Source: Candidatus Iainarchaeum sp. (lineage in GTDB: Archaea > Iainarchaeota > Iainarchaeia > Iainarchaeales > JACQJH01). From it: a stretch of DNA of 64,000 nt. Within the stretch, counting starts at the first letter, position 1; each line of letters begins with the position of its first letter. This document shows, piece after piece, positions 4,965 to 60,302 of the stretch. The translations under genes and the position numbers were made by a program. The notes below the pieces were generated by a model, which was given only the letters and a program-made list of their open reading frames with translations, was not told the origin of the DNA and did no database searches. Where the stretch lies: assembly GCA_016205145.1 (NCBI GenBank), contig JACQJH010000001.1:451501-515500 (forward strand). The letters are read 5' to 3'.

Positions 4965-6689
4965 ATGGCGGGATTTGATGGCAGGACTGTCATTGGCTTG
5001 GCTTTGGTGGCCGTAATCGTGTTTGGGGCGGCGTTTTACATTGGCACATCCGGAAATTCCGGAATGCGTTCAGAGACGCGGCCGGCCGGAAGCGCGGCCG
5101 GGCAAACGGGCGCGGCATTCCCTTCCGGTGAATTGTCCGCCGGCGACAGGGCCATGATGGAGCACTGCAAGTCCATGCCGCAAATGCCGGGGTGCGAAAA
5201 ATTCGCCGGTCAGGAAGCCGCCGCAAATGGCGGTGCGGGTGCAAACGCCGGTTACTCTGATTCAGTTGCCGGGCTTTCCGCGGCAGGCGGAACCGCGGTT
5301 TATGATGCGAAAGACGGCGGAAAAATAACCCTGTCAGCGTCGGCCGTCAAAAAAACCGTTGCCGGCACGGAAGTCAGGATGCTTGCATACAACGGCCAGA
5401 TTCCGGGACCCACGATAAGAGTGAAACAGGGAAGCTCTCTGGAAGTGGAATTCATAAACGGCCTTGACTCCGAAACGACTGTGCACTGGCACGGCGTGAG
5501 AGTAAAAAACGATTTTGACGGCGTTCCGGGCGTGACGCAAAAGCCGGTCAAGCCCGGGGAAAAGTTTGTCTACCCGCTGGAGTTTCCGGACGAGGGCATA
5601 TACTGGTATCATCCGCACATGAGAGAGGACTACCAGCAGGAGCTCGGGCTTTACGGCAACATCATCGTCGAGCCGTCCGATGAAGGCTCTTACAACAAGG
5701 TCAACCGCGAAATGACGCTTGCGCTTGACGACATTCTGATGGAAGGCAATGGCATTGCCGCGTTCTCCGCCGATTTTGCGACGCATTCCCTGATGGGAAG
5801 GTTCGGGAACGTGATGCTGGTCAACGGCAGTGACAAATTTGAAATGGCCGCGCTGAAAGGCGAAACTGTGAGGTTTTTCGTCACGAATGCCGCGAACGCA
5901 AGGACATTCAACTTGGTTTTCGGGGGATTGAAGTTGAAGGTTGTCGGCGCGGACAGCGGAAAGTATGAAAAAGAATTTTTCGCGGACTCGGTTGTGGTGG
6001 CGCCGTCGGAAAGGTACGTTGTGGAAGTGCTGTTTGACGGGGAGGGAACATACAACATCCTCAATTCGACGCCTGAAGGAAAAACGGTTCTCGGCAAAAT
6101 AGCCGTGTCGGGCCGGCAGGCGGAAGAGGATTATTCCAAGGAGTTTTTTGAAACAATGGAAAATTCCCGGGTTGCTGACAGCATTTCCGGCATGAGGCGG
6201 TATTTTGACAAGCCCGCGGACCATGAAATAAGAATCGGCGTGGACCTGATGGGCATGAGTCATGGCAGCATGGCGATGGCTCAGGGAACCGGCGGCATCG
6301 AGTGGGAGGACGAAATGCCGCAAATGAACCTGGCCATGAACAGCAGGATAATGGAATGGCAGTTCATTGACGTGAAAACCGGGAAAAAGAACGAGGGCAT
6401 AAGCTATGAGTGGAAAAAAGGCGACAAAATCAAGTTGAGGATTTTCAACGACCCGGATTCCGCGCACCCCATGCAGCACCCGATCCATTTGCACGGCCAA
6501 AGGTTCCTGGCCATAAGCAGTGACGGGGTGGAAAGCGAAAACCTGGCGTGGAAGGACACGGTTCTGGTCCCGTCGGGTTCCACGGCGGACATTCTTGTGG
6601 ATGTCTCGAATCCCGGAAAATGGATGCTGCACTGCCATGTCCCGGAACACATGGAAAGCGGAATGCACACGACGGTAAACGTAATATGA
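4965..6689 (+). CDS. Multicopper oxidase (laccase/CueO-like), membrane-anchored or secreted.
   Basis: The copper-ligand motifs HWHG, HPIHLHG and HCHVPEHMESGMH are present. It has an N-terminal TM/signal and a GGAGGG RBS. Confidence 0.9.
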   Translation: MAGFDGRTVIGLALVAVIVFGAAFYIGTSGNSGMRSETRPAGSAAGQTGAAFPSGELSAGDRAMMEHCKSMPQMPGCEKFAGQEAAANGGAGANAGYSDSVAGLSAAGGTAVYDAKDGGKITLSASAVKKTVAGTEVRMLAYNGQIPGPTIRVKQGSSLEVEFINGLDSETTVHWHGVRVKNDFDGVPGVTQKPVKPGEKFVYPLEFPDEGIYWYHPHMREDYQQELGLYGNIIVEPSDEGSYNKVNREMTLALDDILMEGNGIAAFSADFATHSLMGRFGNVMLVNGSDKFEMAALKGETVRFFVTNAANARTFNLVFGGLKLKVVGADSGKYEKEFFADSVVVAPSERYVVEVLFDGEGTYNILNSTPEGKTVLGKIAVSGRQAEEDYSKEFFETMENSRVADSISGMRRYFDKPADHEIRIGVDLMGMSHGSMAMAQGTGGIEWEDEMPQMNLAMNSRIMEWQFIDVKTGKKNEGISYEWKKGDKIKLRIFNDPDSAHPMQHPIHLHGQRFLAISSDGVESENLAWKDTVLVPSGSTADILVDVSNPGKWMLHCHVPEHMESGMHTTVNVI

Positions 6690-6746
6690 GCGGCTGCCCG
6701 GAACCGGTTTTAATAACTGCGTTGCGGATTCATTCCGTGGCATAAA

Positions 6747-7217
6747 ATGCGAAAATGGTGGCAAGTGGACAAAAAAATAAAATTCCTGTTGGTTGGGGCG
6801 GGGCTTTCAATTCTGCTTTTCATAATCATGGGAACGCCCACGGCCCTCGTGCCCAACCCATTCATTCACTACAAGAGGATGGTTGCCGCGGCATGGTTGG
6901 ACTATTTTTTTCTCGCCTCAACCTCGATAATGCTTGCGGCATTGATTTCGCTGAAACTGTATTTCAGGTCGGGGCGCGGCCTCGGCGCAAAAGAAATCGG
7001 CGGGGGCGCGCTGGGCTTTCTTGCGTTCAGCTGCCCGATTTGCAATGCTCTTCTCGTGGCTTTGCTCGGCGGCGCGACGATAATGGCGTTCGTGGAGCCG
7101 TTGAGGCCGCTGTTTGGAGTCGTGTCGATTGCGATTTTGGGTTGGCTTATTTATGGCGCGCTGAAATGCGGGGGATGCAATGGCGCCGCAGGCCGGCACG
7201 GCATGAAAATTAATTAA
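6747..7217 (+). CDS. CxxC membrane protein, paralog 2 (FSCPICNALLVALLGG; C-terminal CGGCNG).
   Basis: Same architecture as 1466-2017. Confidence 0.45.
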   Translation: MRKWWQVDKKIKFLLVGAGLSILLFIIMGTPTALVPNPFIHYKRMVAAAWLDYFFLASTSIMLAALISLKLYFRSGRGLGAKEIGGGALGFLAFSCPICNALLVALLGGATIMAFVEPLRPLFGVVSIAILGWLIYGALKCGGCNGAAGRHGMKIN

Positions 7218-7247
7218 TCTGCTTGCATTTACATACAATCTGTTGCG

Positions 7248-7955
7248 GTGCTTGGAATGGCGTTTCCTTTGAACCCCTGGCTTTTCGGCTCGGCCGCCCT
7301 GCTGTTGTTGTGGCTGGCCATATGGCTTTTCAGGCCCGCTTTGCGCAGGGAAATGCTTTTGGTCAGCCTTTTCACCGCGCCTTTGGGTCTGACGGAACCG
7401 CTTTTTGTGCCCGAATACTGGACTCCGCCTTCGCTGTTCAACCTTGCCGCCACAACGGGCTTTGACATTGAAAGCATAGTCTTCTGCTTTGCCGCCGGGG
7501 GAATAGCGGCGGTCATCTACGAAATCCTGGTGAAATCGAGGCACAGTGAAATGTCCATGAATGAAATGCGTTCTAAACGGCACAGGTTCCACAAAATCGC
7601 GCTCGCCTCTCCCGCAATCGTTTTCGTGCCCCTGTACCTTTTTTCCGGCCTGAACCCGATATATGTTTCAATAATTGCGCTGTTTGCCGGCGCAATGGCG
7701 ACTGTCGTGTGCAGGCCGGATTTGAAGAAACCGGTCTTAACCGGAGGAACAGTATTTTTGCTCATCTATTTCTTTTTCTTCCTGTTTTTGAGCGTGGCAT
7801 TCCCGGATTTTGTGCCGAACGCGTGGAATTTTTCGGCCATCAGCGGCATTCTTGTTTTCGGCGTCCCTTTTGAGGAGCTGCTGTTCGCGCTTTCCTTTGG
7901 AATGGCGTGGGCGGGCCTTTACGAGCATTTTTTCTGGAAAAAACTGGTTCGTTAG
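7248..7955 (+). CDS. Polytopic membrane protein. It may be lycopene-cyclase-domain-like, based on PxEE-type motifs (GVPFEELLF).
   Basis: Seven or more hydrophobic helices and a PFEELLF motif. The family assignment is tentative. Confidence 0.35.
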   Translation: MLGMAFPLNPWLFGSAALLLLWLAIWLFRPALRREMLLVSLFTAPLGLTEPLFVPEYWTPPSLFNLAATTGFDIESIVFCFAAGGIAAVIYEILVKSRHSEMSMNEMRSKRHRFHKIALASPAIVFVPLYLFSGLNPIYVSIIALFAGAMATVVCRPDLKKPVLTGGTVFLLIYFFFFLFLSVAFPDFVPNAWNFSAISGILVFGVPFEELLFALSFGMAWAGLYEHFFWKKLVR

Positions 7956-7985
7956 GCCAATCAGGCAACCGGCAAAGGCTTCCGG

Positions 7986-8411
7986 TCAGTGCGCGCCGCC
8001 GCCCTTGAAAGTCCGCGCGCAGTGCCTGCAGCAGAATTTCAGGGTTTTTCCGTTTATTTTTTCCGTGTGGCCGCCTTCATAGACCATGCAGGCGCAGTGC
8101 GCGCACTGCGAAAGCTTCGGTTCCACGGCAAGGTCTATGAGGCCGCCGAACCTGTGCAGCATCGACTTGCAGAACGCCTTGCCTTCCGGCGTCAGAGCGT
8201 AAACCTTTTTTTCCCTCGCGCCCTCTGATTTGACCCGGATGTATTTTGCCTTTTCAAGTTTTGCGAGGAAAGGGTAGATCTGGCCGGGTGAAACCCTGCT
8301 TTCGAGCCTTTCGCTTATCTCCTTTATGAGCTCGTAGCCGTGCCTGGGGCCGTCGCACAGAAGAAGCATGCAATAGAATTTGGCCATGTTTGTGATCCTG
8401 ATTTCTTTCAT
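7986..8411 (-). CDS. PadR-family winged-helix regulator fused to a C-terminal TRASH metal-sensing domain. It is a candidate copper-responsive regulator.
   Basis: The N-terminus LCDGPRHGYELIKEI...GQIYPFLAKLE is a PadR signature. The C-terminus CAHC-x20-CCRHC fits the TRASH pattern C-x2-C-x19-22-C-x3-C. Confidence 0.7.
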   Translation of the reverse strand: MKEIRITNMAKFYCMLLLCDGPRHGYELIKEISERLESRVSPGQIYPFLAKLEKAKYIRVKSEGAREKKVYALTPEGKAFCKSMLHRFGGLIDLAVEPKLSQCAHCACMVYEGGHTEKINGKTLKFCCRHCARTFKGGGAH

Positions 8412-8453
8412 TGCGGTCAGGCGGATTTATCTGGGAAAACGTTTAAATATTTA

Positions 8454-8474
8454 TATATCTAAATTTGATATATC
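8454..8474. promoter_or_regulatory. Divergent promoter region with ATATATC-n7-GATATAT(C). It holds two copies of the self-complementary GATATATC-like element, between the PadR-TRASH gene and the Met-rich protein gene.
   Basis: Sequence TTATATATCTAAATTTGATATATC. These are TATA-like boxes for divergent transcription and/or an operator. Confidence 0.35.
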
Positions 8475-8542: not shown

Positions 8543-9130
8543 ATGGTGGAAAAATCGGGTTTGCTGGCATTGGTTGTATTGGCGGGTTTAATCGCGTTGC
8601 CTGTTGCAATGGCGCAGGGTTCGGATGATTTTGCGCAGGCGAAGGCGCTGATCGACAGGAATGCGTCCTGCGGCAGCCTGAGCAGCGAACAGCTTGAACT
8701 GATCGGCGATTATGTGATGGAGCAGATCCATCCCGGCGAAGCCCACGAATATGTGGAATCGATGATGGGCGGCGAGGGCTCGGATAGCCTGAAACGGGCG
8801 CACATTGCCATGGCTTACAGGTTCTACTGTGCAGGCTTAGGTTCTGGGTTGAACGCAAACAGCCCGTATTATGGCGTAATGGGCGGCTATGGGATGATGG
8901 GTGGCATGATGTACGGCAACTATGGCGGGATGATGGGTTCTGGCAATGCCTATTCCACTTATGGGCTTATGGGATACGGCGGCGGAACCGCAAATTATCC
9001 TGGAATGATGGGCTATAATGCGTCAACCGGCGGCCTTGGCCTGCTTACGCAGGTCTTGTTTGTGGTGGCGCTTGGTCTCGCAGTTCTGTTCCTTGGCATT
9101 AAAGTCTTCGGGCAATTTCAAAAGCGGTGA
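8543..9130 (+). CDS. Secreted Met/Gly/Tyr-rich protein with a signal peptide and a C-terminal TM anchor. It is a putative periplasmic copper-binding protein.
   Basis: Signal peptide LLALVVLAGLIALPVAMAQG. The central region is MGGYGMMGGMMYGNYGGMMGSGNAYSTYGLMGYGG. The C-terminal TM is LFVVALGLAVLFLGI. Confidence 0.55.
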   Translation: MVEKSGLLALVVLAGLIALPVAMAQGSDDFAQAKALIDRNASCGSLSSEQLELIGDYVMEQIHPGEAHEYVESMMGGEGSDSLKRAHIAMAYRFYCAGLGSGLNANSPYYGVMGGYGMMGGMMYGNYGGMMGSGNAYSTYGLMGYGGGTANYPGMMGYNASTGGLGLLTQVLFVVALGLAVLFLGIKVFGQFQKR

Positions 9131-9227: not shown

Positions 9228-9296
9228 TAGTTGTGTTTTTTTGCATCCGGTCTTTTTTATGAATTTTATGGGTGAAGGCTCTAAAGTGGTGGTCAG

Positions 9297-9728
9297 ATGA
9301 ATGAGGTTAAAGTCCAGCGTGTTTTCCTGTTGCTTGTGTTAGGCGCCCTGGTCGTGTTCGGCGGAATGGTTCTGTTTTGGTTTGGCGCTAATGCAGCGCC
9401 CGCCAGATCGGCATCGGTAAATAATCAGGGTATTGTTGCCGGAGGGAACGGCCAGGCACAGGACATTTACATCAGGGCGCTTTCAAGCGGAACCTATGAC
9501 AAAAGCGAGGTCACGGTAAAGAAAGGCGTGCCGGTCAGACTGCATTTTTCCGCTGACCCTGGCGCGGGCTGCGGAAGGTATCTGGTGCTATACGGCCTGA
9601 ACGTCAATGCGCTTTCCAAGAACGGCGAAGAAGCGGTTGTCGACTTCACGCCGCAACAGGAAGGCAGCTTTGAATACAATTGCGGTATGAGAATGTTCAA
9701 ACCCGGAACATTGAAGGTTTTGGCATGA
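9297..9728 (+). CDS. Cupredoxin-like copper-binding domain protein with an N-terminal TM anchor.
   Basis: The beta-rich domain has Cu-ligand-like residues HFSADPGAGCGRY...YNCGMRMFKPG in a Cys...Cys-x-Met arrangement. Confidence 0.55.
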   Translation: MNEVKVQRVFLLLVLGALVVFGGMVLFWFGANAAPARSASVNNQGIVAGGNGQAQDIYIRALSSGTYDKSEVTVKKGVPVRLHFSADPGAGCGRYLVLYGLNVNALSKNGEEAVVDFTPQQEGSFEYNCGMRMFKPGTLKVLA

Positions 9729-10201
9729 GCAGGCTTGAAGCTTTGGCCTTGGTGTTGTCGGAGCGCAGTCAGCTCGCAATATTTCTTGCGGCGTTTGCCG
9801 TGCTTTTGCCTTTGCTGGCAGTCAGCTCGGCAATAATTTCGCCGGTGGGTTTTGCGTTCAATCCTTTGGCTGAACCGCTTGGAATCGCTTTGACAATCGT
9901 CATTGCAATCCTGATGGGCCTGAACCTGACGGTCCTGTTGCATGCCCACGCACGCAATGCAAATGCAAAAAAGGGGACTGTCCTGTTCGGCGGCCTGGCG
10001 GCAACGTTTGCCACTGCCTGCCCTGTTTGCCCGCCGACATGGATTGTCCTGCTCGGCTTCGGCTCGGCCGCGGGCTTTCTTTCTGGAACCGGGATTTTCA
10101 TTGCAATTGGCAGCATAGTCTTGCTTTCATTGGCTCTTTACAATTCTTTGGGTTGCGCAGACGGAAACTGCGGGGTGGACAAGAATGGAAAAAATGATTA
10201 A
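9725..10201 (+). CDS. CxxC membrane protein, paralog 3 (ATACPVCPPTW; C-terminal CADGNCG).
   Basis: Its ATG overlaps the upstream stop (ATGA). Same architecture as 1466 and 6747. Confidence 0.45.
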   Translation: MSRLEALALVLSERSQLAIFLAAFAVLLPLLAVSSAIISPVGFAFNPLAEPLGIALTIVIAILMGLNLTVLLHAHARNANAKKGTVLFGGLAATFATACPVCPPTWIVLLGFGSAAGFLSGTGIFIAIGSIVLLSLALYNSLGCADGNCGVDKNGKND

Positions 10202-10388
10202 AGTGAAAGGCATGCATTGTAAGTCATGCGAAATCCTTGTCGCGGACTCCGTGTCTGAAATCAGCGGCGTGGAAAGCGTCAAGGCGGACAGCAGGAAGGG
10301 AACTGTTGTGGTGAATGTCCGGGATGCCGGGATTCTCGGCAGGGTGAAAGCCGCGATTGAAAAGGAAGGCTACAAGGTGGAAAACTGA
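10185..10388 (+). CDS. copZ: Copper chaperone CopZ (single HMA domain).
   Basis: The GMHCKSCE motif is the MxCxxC of an HMA domain. The protein is 67 aa. Confidence 0.8.
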   Translation: MEKMIKVKGMHCKSCEILVADSVSEISGVESVKADSRKGTVVVNVRDAGILGRVKAAIEKEGYKVEN

Positions 10389-11308
10389 TGGAATTCGAAC
10401 TTGAACTTGGCGGAATGTCCTGCGGCTCATGCGAGCGCATAATCGAAAAGGTTGCCGAGAAAGCCGGCGCGGAAGTCAAGGAAATCGACTCGCGCAAAGG
10501 CAGGGTCACAATCGTTTCCGAGGAATCCAAAATAGCCGGAATAAGGGAAGAGCTTGCCAAGCGCGGCTTTGCCGAAAAGGGCAGCAGGGAAGACGTGGGC
10601 AGGGGCGACCTGAAAAACGTTGTTGGCTACATTTTGGCAGTGCTGTCAATCCAGCCGCACGTCGAAGAGGAAGCCAGGCTCGTCAACCACGCCATTGCGT
10701 CCGCGATTATTTTGGCTGGGCTGAACATTCTGGCTTACCTGTTTTTTGTGCAGGGCCTGGAGAACGGCGAAAAGTACCTTCCATTCCTTGCATTGGCGAT
10801 TGTTGCGTCAATAACATCCGTTTTCGCGTACCTTCACGCCAAATGCTACCGTAAAATCATGTCCTGCCAGAACGGCATGATGGTCGGAATGACCATGGGC
10901 ATGGTTCCGGGCTTCATGGTCGGCGCAATCATTGCCGCGACAAACGGAATGTTTCTTGGCAGCGTGGCCGGAATTCTGACCGGCGCATGGCTTGGCCTGA
11001 AGAGCGGAAAATGCTGCGGCGTAATGGGCGCAATGGAAGGAGTCATGGCCGGCCTGATGTCCGGTTTGATGGGGCCGATGACAGTGATCATGACCCTCAA
11101 CGACAACATGCTCGTTCTGCTTTACCTGATTTTCGGAATCTCTGTTTTTTTGCTCGGCGGCCTGAGCTACATGCTGTACCGCGAGGAAGGCGAAACCCCG
11201 GTTGCGAACACAAAGCTGCCGGAATTCATTGTTCTCGGCATTGCGTTCAATCTTGTGCTGCTGGCGATAATGCTTTTTGCGGTTAAGGGGCCATTGAGGT
11301 TCGTGTGA
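10388..11308 (+). CDS. Fusion of an N-terminal HMA domain to a polytopic Met-rich membrane domain. It is a candidate Cu(I) channel or permease.
   Basis: The N-terminus carries GMSCGSCE. The membrane part is [19 protein letters not shown]...[24 protein letters not shown]. Confidence 0.55.
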
Positions 11309-11318
11309 GGGCGATGGC

Positions 11319-13775
11319 ATGAAAAAAATCACAGTCGGCATTAAAGGCATGCATTGCGCTTCCTGCGCCACGATAATCGAGCGTCGCCTCAAAAAAGTTG
11401 AAGGCGTGAAGGATGTCTCTGTCAGCGTCGCGGCAAACAGGGCGGCGATCGAATTTGATGAGGGCATTGCGGGCATTGAACAGTTTGGAAAGGCAGTGGA
11501 AAGTGCAGGGTACGAACTCGTCCAGCCGCAGGGGCAGGATTCCGGCGATGCGAAGATAACAATGCATGTAAAGGGCATGGATTCGCCGCATTGTGCGGGC
11601 ATTGTCGGGAATGCGCTCAAGGGAACCGCTGGAGTGAAAAAATTCGACCTCAGCTTCCAGAATGCCTCGGCAATGGTTGAATTCGATGCCTCCATCACCG
11701 GCTTTGATAAAATAAAGGCTTCGATTGCAAGGGCAGGCTATGATGCGGAACTGCTTGTCGGGGAGGAAACAGTGGACCAGGAGAAGGCCGCACGCGATAA
11801 AGAAATCGCGGAATTGAAGCGCAGGCTCGTTTTTTCGGCATTGCTGACCGTGCCGGTTGTCCTGCTTGCATTGCCGGAAATGCTGAAAACTGTTATGGCA
11901 TTCGAGTACCCGCAGTTCATAATGCAGAACATGGCTGCATTGCAATTGCTGTTTTCAACGCCGGTGATGTACCTTAACAGGGACATGTTTGTGAGGGGCT
12001 TCAGGGGGCTGTTGAATAACATGCCGGGCATGGACAGCCTTGTCGCTTTGGGCGTCGGGACAACCTATGCTTACAGCGCAATCGTGGCCCTGCGCATCAT
12101 TGGCGGAGTCATGTATTTTGAAACCGCTGCTTTGCTTCTCACGTTCATATTGCTTGGCAGGTACCTTGAGGCGATTGCCAAAGGAAAGACTTCCGAGGCA
12201 ATCAAGCGCCTTGTAGGGCTTGCGCCGAAAACCGCAATCGTGGTCAGGGCAGGAAAAGAGGTTGAAATTCCGATCAAGGAAGTTGTTGTCGGGGACATTG
12301 TCATTGTGAAGCCGGGCAGCAAGATTCCGGTTGACGGCGTCATAGTCGAAGGCGAAAGCAGCATTGACGAGAGCATGATTACAGGGGAGAGCATGCCCGT
12401 GCACAAGCGAAAAAATGACATTGTGATCGGCGGGACAATCAACGGCAATGGCTCTTTCAGGTTCAGGGCGACAAAAATCGGCAAGGACACAATGCTTGCG
12501 CAGATAATCCGTTTGGTGGAGGACGCGCAGGCAAGCAAGGCGCCGATCCAGAAGCTTGCAGACACTGTCGCAGGCTATTTTGTGCACGCAGTAATAGTGC
12601 TTGCATTGCTTGCCTTCGCTTACTGGTATTTCGTGGCAGGCCAGCCGTTTCTTTTCGCGCTCACAATCCTTGTTTCAACGCTTGTGATTTCCTGTCCTTG
12701 CGCAATGGGCCTTGCAACCCCGACAGCGGTCATGATTGGAACCGGCAAGGGCGCCGAGAACGGCGTGCTCATAAAAAACGCGGAGAGCCTTGAAATCCTG
12801 CATCAGGCCAAAACCTTTGTGTTCGACAAGACCGGCACAATCACCATGGGAAAGGCGTCGGTAACGGAAATCGTTCCGGTCGGAATCAAGGCAGCCGACC
12901 TTCTTTGCCTTGCGGCTTCCGCGGAAAAGAATTCCGAGCATCATTTAGCGCAGGCAATCGTGAAAAAGGCGAAGGAATCGAGGCTGAAAATTGCAGAACC
13001 GAAATCTTTCAAGGCGATTCCGGGGCATGGCGTCGAGGCAAAAGTCGGGGCGAAGAATGTTCTCATCGGAACTGTTGTCCTGATGAAAAAAAGCGGGGTC
13101 CGGATCGGAAACGATTTGGTTGGCAGGATGCAGTCGCTTGAAGAGCAGGGAAAAAGCGTTGTCCTTGTTTCGTCGGACGGAAAGCTTGTGGGAATGGTTG
13201 CGATTGCCGACACCATAAAAGAGCATGCTGCCGAGGCTGTAAGGCAATTGCAGGCAATGGGTTATGAAACCGTCATGATAACCGGCGACAATTCCCGCAC
13301 TGCAAACGCGATTGCAAAGCAGGCAGGCATTTCAAGGGTGCTGGCGCAGGTGCTTCCGTCGGACAAGGCCGCGGAAGTCAAGAAATTGCAGTTGAACGGA
13401 AGAAAGGTTGCCTTTGTCGGCGACGGCATAAACGATGCCCCGGCCTTGGCGCAGGCCGACATTGGAATCGCGATTGGCAGCGGCACCGACGTTGCGATTG
13501 AAAGCGGCGGAATAGTTTTGGTGAAAAGCGATTTGCGCGACATTGTGACGGCGGTAAAGCTTAGCAAATACACTCTCGGCAAAATAAAGCAGAATCTGTT
13601 CTGGGCTTTCGGCTACAATGCGGTCGGCATTCCGCTCGCGGCAGGCGCATTCTATCCTTTCACCGGCTGGCTTTTGTCGCCGGTCATAGCCGGAGCGGCA
13701 ATGGCTTTCAGCTCGGTAAGCGTTGTTTCGAACAGCCTGCTCATGCGCGGATGGAAACCGGATAAAAAGGTTTGA
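11319..13775 (+). CDS. copA: Copper-translocating P1B-type ATPase CopA with two N-terminal HMA domains.
   Basis: It has GMHCASCA and GMDSPHCA motifs, an [14 protein letters not shown] motif, DKTGTIT, and GDGINDAP. Confidence 0.92.
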
Positions 13776-47039: not shown

Positions 47040-48335
47040 ATGGCCGAACCTGTCGATATGAACCATGCGTTTTCAAAGGCGCTTGAACTGATGGAAGGGA
47101 CGCGCAAAAACGTTTTCATTACGGGAAGGGCGGGCACGGGCAAATCGACCCTGCTGGGCCATTTCAAAAGCGTTTCAAAAAAACGGCTTGCTGTAATCGC
47201 CCCGACCGGTGTTGCGGCTGTCAACGTCGGCGGCCAGACAATCCACTCGTTTTTCGGCTTCAAGCCGAACATCACGGTCGGCAAGGTGAAGGTTTCAAAA
47301 AAGCGCAGGATATTCGAGGCCCTAGACGCAATCATCATCGACGAAATTTCGATGGTGCGTGCCGACATCCTGGACTGCATCGACCGTTTCCTGAGAGTCA
47401 ACCGCGGCAATCTTGGCGAGCCGTTCGGCGGCGTGCAGATGATTTTGTTCGGCGACCTCTATCAGCTTCCGCCGATTGTGTCTGGTGCTGAGCGCGCGCA
47501 CTTTTCGACTTTTTACCGAAGCCCATACTTTTTCGACTCGGATGCCTTTGAAGGCCTCGGGCTTGAAATAATCGAGCTTGACGAGGTTTACAGGCAGAAG
47601 GACAGGGAATTCGTAAGCTTGCTTGACGGGGTAAGGCATAACAGGATTTCCGACGAGCACCTGAAGCGCCTGAATGCACGGGTCATGCCGTCCTTTGAGC
47701 CGAAAGAAAACGAATTTTACGTGCGCCTGTGCACGCTGAACAGCATGGCGGATGAAATCAACGCGGCGGAACTCGAAAAAATCAAAGCCTATGAATACCG
47801 CTTCCGCGCGGCATCGGAAGGCGATTTCGGAAACGAGTACATGCCATGCGAACAGGAACTCAAACTCAAACTGGGCGCGCAGGTGATGTTTTTGAACAAC
47901 GATTCGGAAAAGCGCTGGGTGAACGGCTCGATGGGAAAAGTCATAGGCTTCCGCAGGGAAAATGAAAACTATGCAATCCAGGTCGAACTGCCCACAAAGG
48001 AAAAGGTTGCCGTAAACCCGCACACCTGGGAACTGTTCAGGCCGAAACTCGACCCGCTCCGGAACGCGCTCGCATATGAAACGATCGGCTCTTTCACGCA
48101 GTATCCTTTGCGCCTGGCCTGGGCCATCACAATCCACAAAAGCCAGGGAAAAACGTTCGAAAAGGCGATAATCGATTTCGGCCATGGAACATTTGCGCCG
48201 GGACAGGCTTACGTCGCCTTGAGCCGGTGCACGACGCTTGAAGGCATGGTCCTCAAAAGGCCGCTTGAAAAAAGGCACGTGATGGTCGACAAAAAAATCG
48301 CGGACTTCATGGAAAAAGCGAAAAAGCCGGGATGA
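47040..48335 (+). CDS. Pif1/RecD-family 5'-3' DNA helicase.
   Basis: Walker A GRAGTGKST and DEISMV. The C-terminus AITIHKSQGKTF...AYVALSRC is the Pif1/UvrD_C_2 signature. Confidence 0.8.
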   Translation: MAEPVDMNHAFSKALELMEGTRKNVFITGRAGTGKSTLLGHFKSVSKKRLAVIAPTGVAAVNVGGQTIHSFFGFKPNITVGKVKVSKKRRIFEALDAIIIDEISMVRADILDCIDRFLRVNRGNLGEPFGGVQMILFGDLYQLPPIVSGAERAHFSTFYRSPYFFDSDAFEGLGLEIIELDEVYRQKDREFVSLLDGVRHNRISDEHLKRLNARVMPSFEPKENEFYVRLCTLNSMADEINAAELEKIKAYEYRFRAASEGDFGNEYMPCEQELKLKLGAQVMFLNNDSEKRWVNGSMGKVIGFRRENENYAIQVELPTKEKVAVNPHTWELFRPKLDPLRNALAYETIGSFTQYPLRLAWAITIHKSQGKTFEKAIIDFGHGTFAPGQAYVALSRCTTLEGMVLKRPLEKRHVMVDKKIADFMEKAKKPG

Positions 48336-48439
48336 TGGCTAGAACCTAGGGCGCCCAAAGAAATGACTGGTCAAGTGGATAATTGTATGGGTAGATAATT
48401 AATAACATTCATTCAATAAATTAAATTATTTTTTGAAGT

Positions 48440-49150
48440 TTGCGTGTCTGGGTGATTAATATAGGAAACCCAATAAATTTTGTCAAAACAAGTTTTAACA
48501 AAATAATAATCAGCACAAAAATTCAAAAAATCAATTATGTGCAACGAATTCTCCTGCTCGTAGTGTCTTGGACGCTTATTGGCTCGATTATAGGAATAAA
48601 TCTAGTAAAATTTAATCTCATTGAAGTTTCAAATTCGTCAATTATTGGTTTGTGTATTTTTAATTGTAATAATATTCAAAATGTCCAAGACAACAAAATA
48701 ACCGAAGAACAAAGGCAAATTGAATATAATAAACATCTGAGGCTTGTGGATTCAACTATTGCAGAGCTAAAAAACAATAGGGGTATTGCTAATCAGTATT
48801 TTGATGATAACAAATCGTATCTAGTTTATCACTACCTATTTTCAAAACGATTTAAAACGACCCAGCTTGAAACGCTAATAAACTCTTCAGATTTTAGAAA
48901 CAATAGCATTATGGGACTTCTAGGTATAGTTGAAACAAACACCAAAAGTGCAAATAAATATCTTGACAATTTAGAACAAATGTTAAAACAAATTGAAACT
49001 GAAGGGCAGTATGATCAATATGGTAAATATGAAGAAACATTTCAAAATATTTTTGAAAAAATTATTAAACCGCTGAACCAAGCGCAAGAAACATTAATTC
49101 AGTTATTAACAAAATACAAGGTTTCTGTGGGCATTAATTCTTTTCCGTGA
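48440..49150 (+). CDS. Orphan ORF within an approximately 0.85 kb AT-rich islet. It is a membrane-anchored, Asn/Ile/Lys-rich protein, and its start is uncertain.
   Basis: The island has strikingly low GC relative to its flanks. There is one TM segment and no recognised motif. Confidence 0.3.
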   Translation: MRVWVINIGNPINFVKTSFNKIIISTKIQKINYVQRILLLVVSWTLIGSIIGINLVKFNLIEVSNSSIIGLCIFNCNNIQNVQDNKITEEQRQIEYNKHLRLVDSTIAELKNNRGIANQYFDDNKSYLVYHYLFSKRFKTTQLETLINSSDFRNNSIMGLLGIVETNTKSANKYLDNLEQMLKQIETEGQYDQYGKYEETFQNIFEKIIKPLNQAQETLIQLLTKYKVSVGINSFP

Positions 49151-49198
49151 GCAAATAAAATTTTGTGTGGCGGTTATTGAATCTTGGTCCTTTTGTTA

Positions 49199-51031
49199 TT
49201 ATTCCCACTCGATCGTCGCGGGCGGCTTGTGCGTTATGTCGACGTACACTCCGCTGATCTTTGTCTTCGGCACTTTTTCCAAAAGCTTTTTCACGAACTT
49301 TTCGGGCAGGGGGAAAAATTTTGCGGTCATTGCCTCGCGGCTCTGCACCGGCCTCAAGACAATCGATTCGCGGCGCCTGCAGTCCGTTCCAACTGGAATC
49401 AAAACTGTCGGGAACTGCCATATTTCATTCATCAGGCCCTGCTTTTCGACCAGCTTCATCACAATCTCATCCATTTCCTGCAGCAATTCAATCCTTTTAG
49501 CGTTCAAATCCTTTGCGAACAGGTTGATGCTTTCCGCCTTTTCCCGGTTAACGCAATAGACAACCCTGTTGACTTCCGGCACTTCGTTTGTGATGCGCGT
49601 TGAAACGAATTCAAGGGCCTTCCAGCCGCTTTTGCCGAACAATGCCATGACATGCTTGTACGAGCGCGAATCGCCCTGGACGCCGACGCTTTTCAATGGC
49701 AAAACCTTTGGCCGCAAACCGGATTCGGCGCAGATTCCGGAAGCCTTTTTTTCGATTGCGGCAATCTCCTTTGCGCTGGAATCACTTTTGCCATTTGAGC
49801 ACAATGCCCTGATTGCAAGTCCCGGCCCGGGAAACGGGTGCCTCAAAACCATTTCATTGGGCAAACCGATGCTTTCGCCCAGCGCCCTGACTTCATCCTT
49901 GTACAACTGCTTCAACGGCTCTATGACAATGCCTTTCGCAATCATTTCCTCTATGACCGGAACGCGGTTGTGGTGCGTCTTGATTTTAGAGGCAAACTTT
50001 GTTCCGGCAGTCTCAATCGTGTCAGGATAAATAGTTCCCTGGCACAAAACCCACTGCTCATGGTTCAATCCGAGCTTTTCAATTTCCGCCTGCATTATTT
50101 CAACAAACAGGTTGCCTATGATTTTTCGCTTTTCCTCCGGGTCGAAAACGCCCTTAAGCGCCGCGAAAAACCTTTTCGACGCGTCAACGGTTGTAACATC
50201 GCACAATCCGAGCTTTTTGAACGCCTTTTTCACGCTTTTCGATTCATTCCTGCGCATGAAGCCCGTGTCAACGTGCAAGGCAAAAACCCTGTCACGCGGC
50301 AGGGCCTTACTCACCAAAGCCAATGCAACAGTGCTGTCGACTCCGCCGGAAACAAGGCTGAAAACCTTCCTGTCGCCGACAGCCCTGACAATCTCGATTA
50401 TCTCCCTTGAAAGATAATTTTCCATTGTCCAGTTTGCATCGCAGCCGCACACGTCAAAAACAAAATTCTTGAGAATCTGCATGCCGTTCTCAGTATGCGT
50501 GACTTCAGGATGAAACTGCAAACCGAAAAATTTCCTGCCTGCATCAGCAACCGCCGCGGCTTCACAGTCGTCGGTGCTGCCAATCACTTCAAACCCTTCC
50601 GGCAGTTTCTCGACAGTGTCGCCGTGCGACATCCACACCTTTTCATTGCCCTGCAACAAGTGGAACAGCCCTTCGGATTTTTTGACGTGCAGGAAAGCCG
50701 AGCCGTACTCCTTTGTCTTTCCGGCAGAAACCGTTCCGCCAAGCGCCTGTGCCATTAATTGGTGGCCATAACAAATGCCCAGCACCGGCTTGCCCAGTCC
50801 GAGAATCTTCCTGTTGAACGGCGGAGCATTCCTGTCGTAAACCGAGTTCGGCCCGCCGGACAAAATTATCCCGCAGCAGTTTTCAAGCTCTTTTTCGGAA
50901 ACAGTCGGCTCCTTTATCTCCGAAAAAACGTTCATTTCGCGGACGCGCCTTGCAATCAGATGCGCGTACTGCGCGCCGAAGTCGATTACAACTATGCCCT
51001 TCTGTTCCTGCATAAACTCAGATAACATCAA
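49199..51031 (-). CDS. guaA: GMP synthase (glutamine-hydrolysing).
   Basis: GATase GICYGHQ, PP-loop SGGVDSTV, and C-terminal IEWE. Confidence 0.92.
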   Translation of the reverse strand: MMLSEFMQEQKGIVVIDFGAQYAHLIARRVREMNVFSEIKEPTVSEKELENCCGIILSGGPNSVYDRNAPPFNRKILGLGKPVLGICYGHQLMAQALGGTVSAGKTKEYGSAFLHVKKSEGLFHLLQGNEKVWMSHGDTVEKLPEGFEVIGSTDDCEAAAVADAGRKFFGLQFHPEVTHTENGMQILKNFVFDVCGCDANWTMENYLSREIIEIVRAVGDRKVFSLVSGGVDSTVALALVSKALPRDRVFALHVDTGFMRRNESKSVKKAFKKLGLCDVTTVDASKRFFAALKGVFDPEEKRKIIGNLFVEIMQAEIEKLGLNHEQWVLCQGTIYPDTIETAGTKFASKIKTHHNRVPVIEEMIAKGIVIEPLKQLYKDEVRALGESIGLPNEMVLRHPFPGPGLAIRALCSNGKSDSSAKEIAAIEKKASGICAESGLRPKVLPLKSVGVQGDSRSYKHVMALFGKSGWKALEFVSTRITNEVPEVNRVVYCVNREKAESINLFAKDLNAKRIELLQEMDEIVMKLVEKQGLMNEIWQFPTVLIPVGTDCRRRESIVLRPVQSREAMTAKFFPLPEKFVKKLLEKVPKTKISGVYVDITHKPPATIEWE

Positions 51032-51189
51032 AAACCTTTAAACACGAACACAACACCAAAAACCGCACGAACGCCTTGAATGCAAAAGAGAAAAAGAGTG
51101 TTTCCCGAAACCGCGGAAATTATGTCCAATCCCAAAACATATTTAAAAAGTTGCAGGCAAAAACCTTGAAAGTGTTGGGAGTTGAAGGG

Positions 51190-51365
51190 GCGAGTCATAC
51201 CGCTTGCGGTTCCCTGGCTTGCCCTCTCATTTTTATCCTGAGCCGCTTTCGTCCGGCTCGCCGTCTCGTCCGGCGGGTACGTTTTGTGGTGTTCGCGCCG
51301 TTGCGGAACACCACGCATGCTTTGCGGGGTTTGCAAGGGGTGCAACCCCTGCGTTTTATCCGGCT
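51190..51365 (+). ncRNA. Candidate structured ncRNA of unknown identity, made of multiple GC-rich hairpins. The strand is uncertain.
   Basis: Nested inverted repeats (GAGCCG..CGGCTC, GTGGTGTTC..GAACACCAC, GGGG-TGCAA-CCCC). No ORF. It is directly followed by a copy of the tRNA-trailer module. Confidence 0.2.
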
Positions 51366-51411
51366 GGTTCGAAACCAAGGCGGCCTGCTGTTGCAAGCCG
51401 CCGAGTGAGTC
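51366..51411 (+). repeat. tRNA-trailer-like module copy B (GGTTCGAAACCAAGGCG + hairpin + CGCCGAGTGAGT), not preceded by a recognisable tRNA.
   Basis: Core GAAACCAAGGCG and CGCCGAGT, with a distinct stem sequence. Confidence 0.4.
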
Positions 51412-51531
51412 AGTACTCCTGACCCTCCCCCGAAATTCCTGATTTTTTCCCACAAAAACCATTAAAAAACTCCCTGACCAAGAATAGTTCAAGGCACCGG
51501 AATCAAAGTGCCAAAAAGCCACCATCAAATT

Positions 51532-51735
51532 GCGGGGGTGGCGGAGCGGTCTAACGCGCCAGCCTTGAGAAACCTTTTTCTTTCTTGAGAAGAAAGAAAA
51601 AGCTTCAATGCAAAATCAAAGATTTTGCATGCATCAAAAATTTGATTTTTGATGTACCAAAAAGAAAGAACCGTTCTTTGTTTCAGGCAAGCTGGTATCC
51701 GAAAGGATGCGCGAGTTCGAATCTCGTCCCCCGCG
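51532..51735 (+). tRNA. tRNA-Ser (anticodon UGA), class II, with an approximately 120-nt intron in the anticodon loop.
   Basis: Exons give a GCGGGGG/CCCCCGC acceptor, a 3-bp D-stem with an 11-nt loop, anticodon stem CCAGC/GCTGG, loop CUUGAG|A, a long variable arm, TTCGAAT, and G73. The intron is 51570-51689. Confidence 0.75.
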
Positions 51736-51736
51736 A

Positions 51737-51800
51737 GCACGCAGTTTCGGCTGCGTGGAGCGAAACTAAGGCGGTTCACACTGTGAACCGCCGAGTAAGC
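51737..51800 (+). repeat. tRNA-trailer module copy C.
   Basis: Hairpin CACGCAG-TTTCGG-CTGCGTG, then GAGCGAAACTAAGGCG, a hairpin, and CGCCGAGTAAGC. Confidence 0.5.
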
Positions 51801-51887
51801 AAAAAAATCACATCGCGTTTTTCGCCTTGCAAAACCGGTTTCGTTTTTAAACATTTTCCACCCAATCTTGGACAAGGTGAGTTGTGG

Positions 51888-52442
51888 ATGAAAAGGCTTG
51901 CAATCGCTTTAATCGCAATCTTATTGCTTTTCGGCTGCACCGTGCCGAAAAAGCCGTCAGGCAATGACAATAATGCGGCTGTAAATCCCCCAGTTGGAGT
52001 TGATTTGATGAAAAACGTTGTGGAAAAAGGCGACACTGTCAAAGCCGACTACATTGGCACGTTTGTCGACGGCAACAAGTTTGATTCTTCGATTGACCGG
52101 AAAGAGCCGCTGGAATTCGTGGCCGGCGCCGGACAGATGATAAAAGGCTTTGACGCCGCAGTCATTGGCATGAAATTGAACGATGAGAAGAACATAACTC
52201 TCCAGCCCAAGGACGCGTACGGCGAAAAGGACCAAAGCCTGGTCAAGCAGGTTCCGAAATCCAATCTTACCGACCAGAACATTTCACCCGAAGTCGGCAT
52301 GACCTTGTTCGCGAACGGCCAGCAGATTGAAGTCACGGCAGTCGACGAGAACACAGTCACTTTGGACTTCAACAGCAGGATGGCGGGCAAAACCCTGAAC
52401 TTCTGGCTCAAAGTGGTCGGAATAACCAAAAAGCGGGCTTAA
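51888..52442 (+). CDS. FKBP-type peptidyl-prolyl cis-trans isomerase, lipoprotein-like.
   Basis: Lipobox LLFGC. FKBP core YIGTFVDGNKFDSS...FVAGAGQMIKGFDAAVIGM. Confidence 0.75.
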   Translation: MKRLAIALIAILLLFGCTVPKKPSGNDNNAAVNPPVGVDLMKNVVEKGDTVKADYIGTFVDGNKFDSSIDRKEPLEFVAGAGQMIKGFDAAVIGMKLNDEKNITLQPKDAYGEKDQSLVKQVPKSNLTDQNISPEVGMTLFANGQQIEVTAVDENTVTLDFNSRMAGKTLNFWLKVVGITKKRA

Positions 52443-52640
52443 ACCAAGCCTGCCCCTCTTTTTTTATTCTTTATTTAACAGCTTTTGGTATGTTAGGATA
52501 AGCCGCCGGGCGGCAGAGGCATTGAGCTTTTGCGAAATGCCTCAACATCGCACGTTGGCGACGAAAACGCGCTGAAAGCGCGTAGGGCTATGCGAGTGAA
52601 ACGAGCATAGTGCGTCGCACCAGACGGGCGATGACGTCTT

Positions 52641-52824
52641 GCGGGGGTGGCGGAGTGGTCTAACGCGCCAGCCTGGAACTGCCCTTTCTTTTCTTTGAAA
52701 AAGAAAAGAAAGTGCAAGGTGCCCAAAGAAAAGAAAACGGGCCATTGCCCGGAAAAGGCGCTTTGCAAGGCACCAACAAGCTGGTTTCCGCAAGGAAGCG
52801 CGAGTTCGAATCTCGTCCCCCGCG
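52641..52824 (+). tRNA. tRNA-Ser (anticodon GGA), class II, with an approximately 100-nt intron.
   Basis: The exons are near-identical to the tRNA-Ser(UGA) exons. The anticodon loop is CUGGAA|A. The intron is 52679-52778. Confidence 0.75.
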
Positions 52825-52888
52825 TGCCGCTTTCGGGCGGCAGTGCCGAAACCAAGGCGTATTGCTAATCGCAATACGCCGAGTAGGC
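52825..52888 (+). repeat. tRNA-trailer module copy D.
   Basis: Hairpin TGCCGC-TTTCGG-GCGGCA, then GTGCCGAAACCAAGGCG, a hairpin, and CGCCGAGTAGGC. Confidence 0.5.
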
Positions 52889-52943
52889 TCAATCAGGCAA
52901 AAAGGCTATTAAGCTTTAGCAGAAAGAATTAATCTTACTCAAA

Positions 52944-53026
52944 GCGGGGTTACCCAAGCGGTTAACGGGAGCGGGTTGAGGGCCCGTAGCTTAGTGCTTA
53001 CAGCGGTTCGAATCCGCTACCCCGCA
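52944..53026 (+). tRNA. tRNA-Leu (anticodon GAG), class II, with no intron.
   Basis: Acceptor GCGGGGT/ACCCCGC, anticodon loop UUGAGGG, long variable arm, A73. An integrase gene lies immediately downstream. Confidence 0.8.
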
Positions 53027-53087
53027 AAAGAAAATTGCGTTCTGTTTTGACCCCCTGCTTTTATTTGAAAAAGGCAGGAGGGTTTGT

Positions 53088-54209
53088 ATGATTAAGACAG
53101 AATCGCAGCTTTCAAACTACTTTTCTGGGTTCGAGGAACAGATAGGCAAGCACAACGCCCAGTTAATAATTGCTTTTGCCGAAAAGCACAGGGCGACCGT
53201 TACAGAGCCGAGCCTTCAACGAATTAGCACGGTTTGCATTCGTTTGAAGTCTATTGCCAAGTGGCTGAACAAGCCTCTGGACAGGCTAACCGAAGCCGAC
53301 CTAATCAGGCTTAACACGGCAATGCGCGACAAGGGCATGAAGTCAAGCGCGGACTACCGGCAATGCCTAAAGCACTTTTTCAAGCTGACCGACAAAAAGC
53401 GTTTCTATGACCTCATTGAATCAGAATACCTGCGAAACGTCAAGAAAAAGGGCACAGACCAGCTTGTGGACGCGGAAGAATTTTGGAGTCAAAGCCAATG
53501 CAACGATTATCTCATGGAAAGCCTTAACCGTTCCAAAAGGCACGGTGCGTTTGCTGCAATTTGGTTGTCGTGTGGCATGAGGCCGCATGAAATAATGGGT
53601 TTGCATAAGGCAGACCTTGAATTGGATGGACAAAGCCTTGTAGTCAAGGTTCGGAGCGGCAAAACCGGCAAAAGAACAATCGTGTTAAACGGCAACGAAG
53701 GAACAGGGGTTTTTCGATATGTTGAGCCTTACCTTGACACTTTGAAAGACAACGAAAAGCTATTTTCCCTGACTTACAAGGCCGTTGAAAAATGCCACCA
53801 CAACATTTGTGAAAAAATAGGCTTGCCGGAAGGCAAAAGCCGAAAGCTTTACATGAGCAGAAAACGGACTTTGACACGCTGGTATAACGAGTTTGGGCTT
53901 GTCAAGGCCGCCAAAATGTGCGGCCACGTGCAAGGCGGTCGGGCAATGAAACACTATTTGGACATGACCGACGAGGAATTGAAGGAAAACAAGCGGCCGG
54001 AACGCCTTGAAAACAAGGTTTGCCCCAATCCAAATTGCAAGCAAGTCAACGAACCGCTTAGCGGCCTATGCTCCAAATGCAGCAGCCCGCTGGACAGGGA
54101 ACGCTTTGACGAGCTGATAAAAAGCAGCTTGGACGAACTGGTTGAAACAAAAATTGCGCTGGCAATCGTCAAACTCCAAAATGAAGCCCTGAAACTCAAA
54201 ACCCAATAG
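53088..54209 (+). CDS. int: Tyrosine recombinase/integrase with a C-terminal zinc ribbon.
   Basis: Catalytic region RPHEI...GHVQGGRAMKHY. C-terminal CPNPNC...CSKC. Confidence 0.85.
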   Translation: MIKTESQLSNYFSGFEEQIGKHNAQLIIAFAEKHRATVTEPSLQRISTVCIRLKSIAKWLNKPLDRLTEADLIRLNTAMRDKGMKSSADYRQCLKHFFKLTDKKRFYDLIESEYLRNVKKKGTDQLVDAEEFWSQSQCNDYLMESLNRSKRHGAFAAIWLSCGMRPHEIMGLHKADLELDGQSLVVKVRSGKTGKRTIVLNGNEGTGVFRYVEPYLDTLKDNEKLFSLTYKAVEKCHHNICEKIGLPEGKSRKLYMSRKRTLTRWYNEFGLVKAAKMCGHVQGGRAMKHYLDMTDEELKENKRPERLENKVCPNPNCKQVNEPLSGLCSKCSSPLDRERFDELIKSSLDELVETKIALAIVKLQNEALKLKTQ

Positions 54210-54759
54210 GCTGCCCTTCATGTGCCAACAAAAAGGTTATAAATGCCAGACGATTTATTTACTGTATGAATAGTGCCGGAGCAGGCAATGTTGATGCAAT
54301 AGCTGTTTTTGGTGTTGCCGGAGCGATTTTAGGCGCAATTTTTCCCATTTTTGGAACCAACACCGTCATAGTTGGGCTGTTTGCCGGCATAATAATAGGG
54401 TTCCTTATACAACGGGGGTGATTTTCTGGACACCCCAACATATATAGCAATTTTTGGGCTGTTTGCAGTTCTCCTTCTAATATACCGAAAATTCGTTCTG
54501 AAAAAAGAACTGTCATACAGAATTTATTTTGTGGTTATTCTCGGAACGTTATCTGTTGCAGAAGCCACGTCCGCAATCATTTTGTATTTTTTTAATTTGG
54601 ATTTGGGGATTATAAGCAAAGATTTGCTGTTTGTCGTTGCGGGTGGCTTAATGCTTTTGTTTTCTTTGGGTTTTGTTTTTCGGGAAATTCGCGAGACCGA
54701 AAAATAAGGTTAAGAGCGCTGGAAAAAGGAAAGAAAGGCACATTAGCGGTAGACTAAAA

Positions 54760-60284: not shown

Positions 60285-60302
60285 GAATTTCTTATTTGCA
60301 CC

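Follow-up and report, generated by a model that had tools for sequence, protein, structure and literature searches.

Comparison of the padR-TRASH regulator with described systems

Among the described metal-responsive repressors, CopY of Enterococcus hirae is a winged-helix dimer of the BlaI/MecI type with a C-terminal CxCx4CxC motif, which is released from the palindromic cop box (TACAnnTGTA) when Cu(I) replaces Zn(II). The characterised archaeal copper regulator CopR joins an Lrp/AsnC part to a TRASH domain, which is implicated in copper sensing (PMC7830388), in agreement with what the first-pass annotation of our locus had said of archaeal copper regulators. The proteins of PadR subfamily 2 have about 110 residues and one C-terminal dimerisation helix; PadR proteins bind inverted repeats as dimers, autoregulation of their own genes has been proposed, and LmrR and the other functionally described members covered are repressors (PMC3506622). 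We analysed a 64-kb stretch of contig JACQJH010000001.1 of Candidatus Iainarchaeum sp., hereafter the window, in which the gene padR-TRASH (7986..8411, minus strand) codes for a protein of 141 residues. This regulator is most likely a TRASH copper sensor on a PadR chassis, that is, a new combination of known parts rather than a new principle, and a perfect palindrome next to its gene, ATATATC-TAAATTT-GATATAT (8453..8473), is the predicted operator of the PadR dimer.

The gene, stop codon included, was delimited with the list of open reading frames (ORFs), Pfam and the alignment of homologues. Its product begins with MKEIRITNMAKFY, and the start codon is right because this N-terminus is kept among the homologues. 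The protein is identical to GenBank MBI4052843.1, from a metagenome-assembled genome (MAG) of Candidatus Diapherotrites, and the only annotation it carries there is ‘PadR family transcriptional regulator’. The PadR winged helix-turn-helix domain comprises residues 17–81 (8169..8363, minus strand), as located by Pfam, an AlphaFold2 (AF2) model and Foldseek. It matches PF03551 with 60.9 bits against a cut-off of 27 (E 1.2e-16), and all 36 homologues match the same hidden Markov model (HMM). The NCBIfam scan of the regulator returned generic PadR similarity only, and neither Pfam nor NCBIfam gave a match to the Lrp/AsnC family. The recognition helix of the domain is SPGQIYPFLAKLEK and its wing is REKKVYALTPEG.

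The AF2 model of the regulator, built from the 36-sequence alignment, has a mean predicted local distance difference test score (pLDDT) of 89.7, with about 95 in the PadR winged-helix region. It contains helices at residues 9–20, 25–36 and 42–54, a beta wing at 58–73, a long helix at 75–99 and a beta-beta-beta-beta-alpha module at 100–136. In the Foldseek search against PDB the top matches are PadR subfamily-2 structures (1xma, 7wh4/5zi8 of Mycobacterium tuberculosis Rv3488, 6abt, PadR-like proteins of Listeria and Bacillus, and LmrR), and the PadR-like RosR of Halobacterium is also among the matches; their target-normalised template modelling scores are 0.63–0.80. The PadR-like N-terminus named by the first-pass annotation is thus borne out both by the HMM score and by the fold. 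The long C-terminal helix (8115..8189, minus strand) was assigned from the secondary structure of the model and the subfamily definition (PMC3506622); as modelled, it corresponds to the single dimerisation helix of subfamily 2 and runs into the TRASH domain without a linker. Residues 1–99 of the model fit the description of subfamily 2, and dimerisation is predicted.

The full-length fold search matched the PadR part only, so the Cys-rich part was modelled separately. This predicted TRASH-type metal-binding domain (residues 100–136; 8004..8114, minus strand) was delimited by alignments, Pfam and fold, and its cysteines follow the pattern C103-A-H105-C106-A-C108-x18-F126-C127-C128-R-H-C131, or C-x2-C-x20-C-x3-C. 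The TRASH motif C-x19-22-C-x3-C (Ettema et al. 2003, as cited in PMC7830388) is found as C106-x20-C127-x3-C131, to which C103 adds a CxxC. In Pfam, the model TRASH_HVO_1752_C (PF24273) covers residues 102–136 with 23.3 bits for the full protein (E 7e-5) and 27.3 for the isolated domain, and it matches 31 of the 36 homologues at E≤0.01, the best with 3.6e-8. The isolated domain also gives weak matches to Ta0938, zf-FCS and ATPase-cat_bd, and other members of the family to Arc_trans_TRASH and L24e as well. Modelled alone (pLDDT 85.3), the domain superposes on L24e/Rlp24 with query-normalised template modelling scores of 0.72–0.76 and a root-mean-square deviation of 1.4–1.9 Å over 42–44 of 46 residues; the Foldseek E-values of these matches are modest (5e-3 to 1e-1) because the domain is only 46 residues long. 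L24e and the TRASH families share a Pfam clan.

The cysteines are strongly conserved. C103 and C106 never vary across the 36 aligned homologues, where C127, C128 and C131 reach at least 90% conservation; the 43 aligned C-terminal segments keep all five without exception. Of 64 wider representatives, 63 have the FCC doublet and 56 the x20 spacing; H105 is kept in 45 and C108 in 42. The YHS/TRASH domains of the chaperone and the ATPase encoded next to the regulator in one related locus (L011) have the usual single N-terminal Cys and FCS, so the extra cysteines set the PadR-TRASH family apart. Judged by sequence and modelled fold, we accept the domain as a TRASH-class module of a distinct variant, with HMM support that is borderline for this protein; of the C-terminal TRASH domain proposed earlier, the Cys spacing is exact and the fold is L24e-like, but the HMM score stays at the margin.

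Compared with CopR and CopT (Pyrococcus furiosus PF0739, Thermococcus onnurineus, Saccharolobus solfataricus), the regulator shares the C-terminal TRASH-type Cys domain, presumed to sense Cu(I), and a gene position beside, and often divergent from, a P1B-1 copA, with a palindrome at the shared promoter; some PadR-TRASH members also share a short His-containing tail. The scaffolds differ: a PadR subfamily-2 dimer with a single C-terminal helix here, and in CopR an Lrp/AsnC protein with an octamer-forming domain. The operators differ too, as ATATATC-N7-GATATAT stands in place of TTNNCAWWWTGNNAA, which has no match in the window, and so do the TRASH variants, with an FCC doublet and often CxHCxC in this family and FCS in the YHS domains of the ATPase and the chaperone encoded nearby. 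By analogy, PadR-TRASH would work like CopR as a domain-swapped counterpart, yet outside the CopR family.

With PadR subfamily 2 (LmrR, bcPadR1/2, Rv3488, 1XMA) the regulator has in common the Pfam family, the fold, the wing R-x-K-K-x-Y-x-L-T-x-x-G, the single long C-terminal helix and an inverted-repeat operator upstream of its own gene. Those proteins, however, end after the C-terminal helix (at about 110 residues), sense an organic ligand where the two subunits meet or lack a known ligand, and include no described member with a TRASH domain; the regulator is a PadR family member of the subfamily-2 type with an added domain. The likeness to CopY concerns the logic in outline only, namely a small winged-helix dimer whose C-terminus carries a cluster of cysteines, and a palindrome in front of the cop genes. 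The winged helix, the Cys motif (CxHCxC...FCCxxC here) and the fold are different, and the cop box does not occur in the window. Concerning the Cys domain, the closest sequence relatives are Ta0938 (2FQH; E 7e-4), which is also the nearest one with a solved structure, and the C-terminal TRASH domain of HVO_1752 (PF24273), the FCC doublet included. The alignment with Ta0938 spans the Cys domain only, and neither protein has an assigned function; the one remark found on HVO_1752 is that deleting it gave no phenotype (PMC8223754).

The combination of the two domains is uncommon, as the first-pass annotation had proposed. When 1.84 billion cluster representatives were searched exhaustively with a profile, 66 scored at E≤1e-30 among 12,943 generic PadR matches, and these 66 are essentially the full-length family. 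The word-index search found 40 relatives, all from metagenomes or MAGs except for a weak PadR-only match to a cultured bacterium; the named sources are Diapherotrites, Aenigmarchaeota and Promethearchaeota. The same kind of search with the 47-column alignment of the Cys domain gave no match. On these sequence data, the PadR-TRASH architecture is real but rare, archaeal and mostly of DPANN lineages. A literature search on the PadR and TRASH combination, with HVO_1752, Ta0938 and PadR with copper or DPANN among its topics, found no paper.

The palindrome and the copper genes across loci

The palindrome occupies the intergenic region upstream of padR-TRASH, where the letters read TTATATATC (8451–8459), the spacer TAAATTT (8460–8466) and GATATATC (8467–8474). 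The half-site ATATATC occurs five times in the window against about one expected, a count reached in 2 of 100 shuffles; the arrangement ATATATC-N6-9-GATATAT occurs once and in none of the 100 shuffles. No second copy is found in the 64 kb, even at three mismatches. The repeated ATATATC promoter element of the first-pass annotation is therefore correct in its letters and its N7 spacing, but it is an inverted and not a direct repeat, and as a single copy it does not recur across the promoters of the island. The palindrome comes close in geometry to the published PadR box, ATGT-N8-10-ACAT (PMC3506622), when it is read as ATAT-N9-ATAT. A literal ATGT-N8-ACAT is found once in the window, inside an oxidase gene and at chance level (20 of 100 shuffles), and was set aside as irrelevant.

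For the family comparison, 19 loci were used: the window, five from exact-protein look-ups and 13 from species-representative genomes. The last set includes Aenigmatarchaeota, Micrarchaeota, Hadarchaeota, MAGs labelled Methanosarcinales and Candidatus Benthortus; Diapherotrites are represented among the 19 too. An alignment of the upstream regions by eye showed that what they share is an inverted and not a direct repeat, and the loci were scanned with up to two mismatches and spacers of 6–8. In 18 of the 19 the regulator start is preceded, at 8–90 bp, by a palindrome with spacer 7 or 8, and this upstream site is perfect in 11 (the window, L003, L006, L009, L011, L013, L014, L017 and L018, and with spacer 8 L019 and L022). 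In L024, where padR follows copA, a site with one mismatch lies about 10 bp before the ATG of copA. L006 has two tandem copies upstream of padR (7892–7912 and 7942–7962), and in L015 a second copy, the only perfect one (spacer 8; 6529–6550), lies between padR and copA. The paired sites of L006 and L015 suggest cooperative binding or a separate control of copA.

The conservation extends to single positions. In the 17 sites with spacer 7, A3, T4, T6, G15, A16, T17, A18 and T21 are invariant, C7 is kept in 16 and the spacer is A/T-rich; two sites of the family read ATATGTC. In 269 kb of family loci, every site with at most one mismatch adjoins padR or copA.

The palindrome is also found beside PadR genes of other kinds. 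In a reverse test, a metagenome collection was scanned for the exact 14-base palindrome, and the 120 random loci returned (L092–L211) were analysed with the family profile. A PadR-type ORF lies directly beside the palindrome in 29 of these, in DNA of 30–71% GC; one of the 29 is a PadR-TRASH and the other 28 are ordinary short PadR proteins without TRASH, evidently mostly bacterial (for example L117 2077–2097, L128 554–574 and L149 3915–3935). In 667 kb around PadR-only relatives (L026–L091), 10 of the 11 sites with at most one mismatch precede the PadR match by 250 bp or less, perfect sites in genomes of 64–70% GC among them. The exact palindrome, with spacer 7 or 8, is also present in the genome loci L038, L068, L069 and L090 and ahead of several bacterial PadR relatives in genomes of 64–71% GC. 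The palindrome travels with the PadR domain across bacteria and archaea, independent of TRASH, of copper genes and of promoter type, and this association is strong indirect evidence from sequence that it is the operator of this PadR clade, as predicted. We found no paper that describes it for PadR proteins, in a literature coverage that was incomplete.

The neighbours of the regulator point to copper. A P-type ATPase with DKTGT and CPC lies 0–4.7 kb from it in all 19 loci; some of these come from related genomes and are not 19 independent events, though arrangements and neighbours vary widely. The ATPase gene is divergent in 11 loci, downstream on the same strand in seven and immediately upstream in one. 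All 17 complete ATPases carry CPC, YN-x4-P and M-x2-SS, which we take to be the P1B-1 Cu(I)/Ag(I) signature of the Arguello classification. Judged by gene neighbourhood, the family is consistently wired to Cu(I) ATPases in at least four archaeal lineages, and a copper-regulator role for PadR-TRASH is strongly supported by this genomic context.

Other features of the family loci were noted as well. In the Micrarchaeota L014, L016 and L017 (upstream of about 5900), the padR-TRASH–copA cassette starts directly after the 3' end of a tRNA gene (GGTTCAATCCCTGCTTCGGGCGA), which hints at a cassette that is mobile or was inserted at a tRNA locus. A gene for a DUF7343/MarR-like winged-helix protein lies near the copper ATPase in L003 (4388–4879) and L006 (15799–16341) and could be a second regulator of the same clusters.

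Proposed mechanism and its alternatives

The promoter geometry was read from the window and then from the other loci. Between the palindrome and the padR start there is a TATA-box-like element, TTTAAATATTT (8442..8452), at about -31 to -41 of the ATG. It appears to resemble the TTTAAATA- or CTTTTTAA-like boxes found 26–52 bp upstream of the start codons of other genes in the window. In padR orientation the order is ATATATC-AAATTTA-GATATAT-AAATATTTAAAC-(29 nt)-ATG, so that the operator would end where the TFB-recognition element (BRE) of padR should lie. On the other strand, the same TATA-like stretch and the operator are located 70–100 bp before a gene for a Met-rich protein, which has a GGGGTGG Shine–Dalgarno-like element, and in the promoter of this gene the operator would be positioned after the TATA box and before the start of transcription. 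This gene (8543..9130, plus strand) is divergent from padR-TRASH as claimed by the first-pass annotation, but it starts at ATG 8543, as called on the identical public contig, and not at TTG 8465. It seems the obvious target of the operator. In Micrarchaeota (L014, L016–L018, L020 and L025) the site ends 8–13 bp before the start codon and covers the padR region from TATA box to start, and in L011, L013 and L023 it fills most of the 60–70 bp gap to the divergent copA; these placements would fit repression by occlusion, the mode in which LmrR and the other functionally described PadR proteins covered also act. A scan for sigma-70 promoters and intrinsic terminators gave nothing above background, with bacterial models that are not applicable to an archaeon.

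We regard it as probable, with moderate confidence, that the protein is a copper-responsive PadR-type repressor, which controls its own gene and the divergent cop genes and is released by Cu(I) at the TRASH thiolates. Two known modules would be fused in it, a PadR subfamily-2 winged helix with dimerisation helix (residues 1–99) and, at the end of the helix, the TRASH-type domain (100–136). The dimer would bind the 21-bp palindrome, a site that would adjoin the TATA/BRE region of the regulator's own promoter and would also be part of the divergent Met-rich gene's promoter or leader, ahead of the genes for copper efflux; its occupancy would keep both promoters low. When cytoplasmic Cu(I) rises, it would be bound by the thiolates of C103, C106, C127, C128 and C131, possibly displacing a resting Zn(II). 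This binding would move the C-terminal helices and change the spacing of the recognition helices; dissociation of the dimer from the DNA would then derepress both the cop genes and the regulator's own gene. Binding as a dimer, Cu(I) as the ligand, repression instead of activation and release on metal binding are the steps that we infer.

Several points weigh against this proposal. Concerning the sensor domain, its TRASH score in the full-length protein (23.3) is under the gathering cut-off of 27, the classical YHS model finds no match in the regulator and Arc_trans_TRASH matches just one of the 36 members; Ta0938, its nearest solved relative, is a small protein of unknown function, and four cysteines in a treble clef may, as L24e shows, do no more than hold a structural Zn. 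Concerning the DNA, the operator lies upstream of the TATA box at the padR promoter, and at Pyrococcus CopR promoters a site directly upstream of the BRE goes with copper-dependent activation (PMC7830388). There is no operator in the upstream region of the multicopper-oxidase block (4965–7955) according to the window scan. Also, the tightly packed block from cupredoxin to CopA (9297–13775) begins 166 bp after the Met-rich gene, and this gap contains T-runs and a TATA-like stretch, CTTTTTTATGAATTTTA, but no operator. Because of this gap, co-transcription of the block with the Met-rich gene is uncertain and copA is a putative direct target in the window; there is possibly a separate cupredoxin–copA promoter near 9255–9275. 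The reading as regulator of the island appears plausible, with the operator sequence at the central divergent promoter only. The first-pass annotation had named the protein the best candidate for this role, which holds as far as the copper context and the lack of any other regulator in the copper cluster of the window are concerned, but its operator is confined to the intergenic region between padR and the Met-rich gene.

The Cys domain might instead be a structural Zn ribbon or a thiol redox switch. The regulator would then respond to a different signal, for which oxidative or disulfide stress, Zn/Cd/Ag and a small molecule at the dimer interface come into question, and its tie to copper genes would be loose. 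RosR, the archaeal PadR-like protein among the structural matches, is an oxidative-stress regulator, and genes for AhpC/redoxin, DsbD/CcdA and OsmC lie near several family members. The best fold matches, L24e/Rlp24, have a structural site at the equivalent place, the closest solved relative has no assigned function, and the TRASH HMM score is marginal. We nevertheless judge this explanation unlikely, since a Cu(I)-type ATPase is nearby in every one of the 19 loci, often directly divergent or in the same operon, and the fifth invariant Cys (FCC, 63 of 64), together with a frequent sixth Cys and a His, exceeds the needs of structural Zn. The TRASH domains of the neighbouring ATPases and chaperones, moreover, belong to copper trafficking (PMC7830388).

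If the ligand is copper, the direction of control has to be considered as well. Like Pyrococcus CopR, the protein could be a copper-dependent activator or a dual regulator, which stays on DNA upstream of the BRE and in which Cu(I) allosterically boosts TBP/TFB recruitment. On the padR side, the window and L003, L011, L013, L019 and L022 do have the palindrome directly before a TTTAAATA-type box, and the CopR motif is placed in the same way, ‘directly upstream of BRE’, where copper activates the promoter (PMC7830388). On the other hand, the Micrarchaeota sites close to the start codon have the geometry of a repressor, as do those that fill most of the gap to the divergent copA; the functionally described PadR proteins covered, such as LmrR, are repressors; and the CopR model needs an Lrp-type octamer wrapping DNA (PMC7830388), which a PadR dimer lacks. 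Activation of this kind seems to us quite unlikely. It is also conceivable that the ATATATC repeats are AT-rich archaeal promoter elements, two divergent TATA boxes that the regulator does not bind. The half-sites are TATA-like and are located in a divergent promoter region, and at two mismatches the loci contain 34 matches against 8.75 in block shuffles, which reflects an AT-rich intergenic background. C7, G15 and the 7–8 bp spacing are, however, conserved across phyla, and the other promoters of the window use TTTAAATA or CTTTTTAA and none has the palindrome. The exact palindrome also stands beside PadR genes in bacterial DNA with as much as 71% GC, a setting in which archaeal TATA boxes play no part. 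Because the palindrome accompanies PadR genes across bacteria and archaea, it is not a mere pair of archaeal TATA boxes, and we consider this explanation very improbable.

Gene neighbourhood in the window and significance of the family

The product of the divergent Met-rich gene has 195 residues and comprises a signal peptide, a conserved N-terminal domain (GDYxMEQxHPGEAHE), a Met/Gly/Tyr-rich stretch and a C-terminal membrane anchor; no Pfam family matches it. A homologue is found in L006 (7359–7889, minus strand; 45% identity over 96 residues, E 8e-31) at the same divergent position beside padR-TRASH. The protein is possibly an extracytoplasmic Cu(I)-binding protein.

The block that follows on the plus strand codes for a cupredoxin-like protein (9297–9728), a CxxC membrane protein (9725–10201), an HMA chaperone (10185–10388), an HMA-fused Met-rich membrane protein (10388–11308) and the P1B-1 Cu(I) ATPase CopA (11319–13775; CPC, YN-x4-P and M-x2-SS). 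The HMA-fused protein, located just upstream of copA, has 306 residues with an N-terminal HMA-like domain and a Met-rich polytopic membrane domain, and has no family match except a weak one to HMA. On the other side of the regulator, and also on the plus strand, a block for a multicopper oxidase (4965–6689), a second CxxC membrane protein (6747–7217) and a membrane protein with a Lycopene_cyc domain (7248–7955; E 2e-17) converges on the 3' end of padR. The Lycopene_cyc protein, encoded between the multicopper oxidase and the regulator, is an unexpected partner for copper genes. The two CxxC proteins, which flank the regulator, are distantly related (24% identity, E 8e-6); both have CP-x-C within a transmembrane segment and a Cys-rich C-terminus, and one is weakly MerTP-like. 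Without a family of their own, they are candidate permeases for copper or thiol handling.

Base composition does not mark the copper cluster as a foreign island: its GC content, 0.52–0.55, is like that of the flanks. In the final 16 kb of the window (about 48000–64000), around tRNA genes, GC falls from about 0.52 to 0.36–0.46, and this part may be a foreign or integrated segment. It contains a 184-nt Rfam tRNA match (52641–52824, plus strand) that was not called by ARAGORN and is probably an intron-containing archaeal tRNA. A tRNA-Leu(gag), called by ARAGORN 120 bp further on (52944–53026, plus strand), has no Rfam listing at gathering score.

Archaeal copper sensing is known experimentally almost only from the Lrp–TRASH CopR of thermophiles, with nothing for DPANN archaea, which have not yet been grown alone. 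The locus provides a complete testable unit from a tiny groundwater archaeon, consisting of a 141-residue protein, a 21-bp operator and target genes. It also indicates that a TRASH sensor can be carried by DNA-binding scaffolds that are unrelated to each other, and the palindrome together with PadR-TRASH would be a cheap marker for copper-resistance cassettes in metagenomes. Tentatively, and with somewhat less than even confidence, we propose that the main task of sensing cytoplasmic Cu(I) falls to PadR-TRASH proteins in several DPANN lineages (Diapherotrites, Aenigmatarchaeota and Micrarchaeota) and in some other archaea, where they would replace the Lrp-type CopR. They would represent a bacterial-style repressor module of two-fold symmetry, with a box shared with a large, uncharacterised bacterial PadR clade, that was made a metal sensor when a five-cysteine TRASH variant of the FCC type was fused to the dimerisation helix, with cysteines of both subunits perhaps sharing a Cu(I)-thiolate cluster. 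If this is true, the palindrome defines a previously undescribed cross-domain class of PadR operators. As a side result, its presence beside many TRASH-less bacterial PadR genes would give a predicted operator to a large uncharacterised group of PadR proteins.

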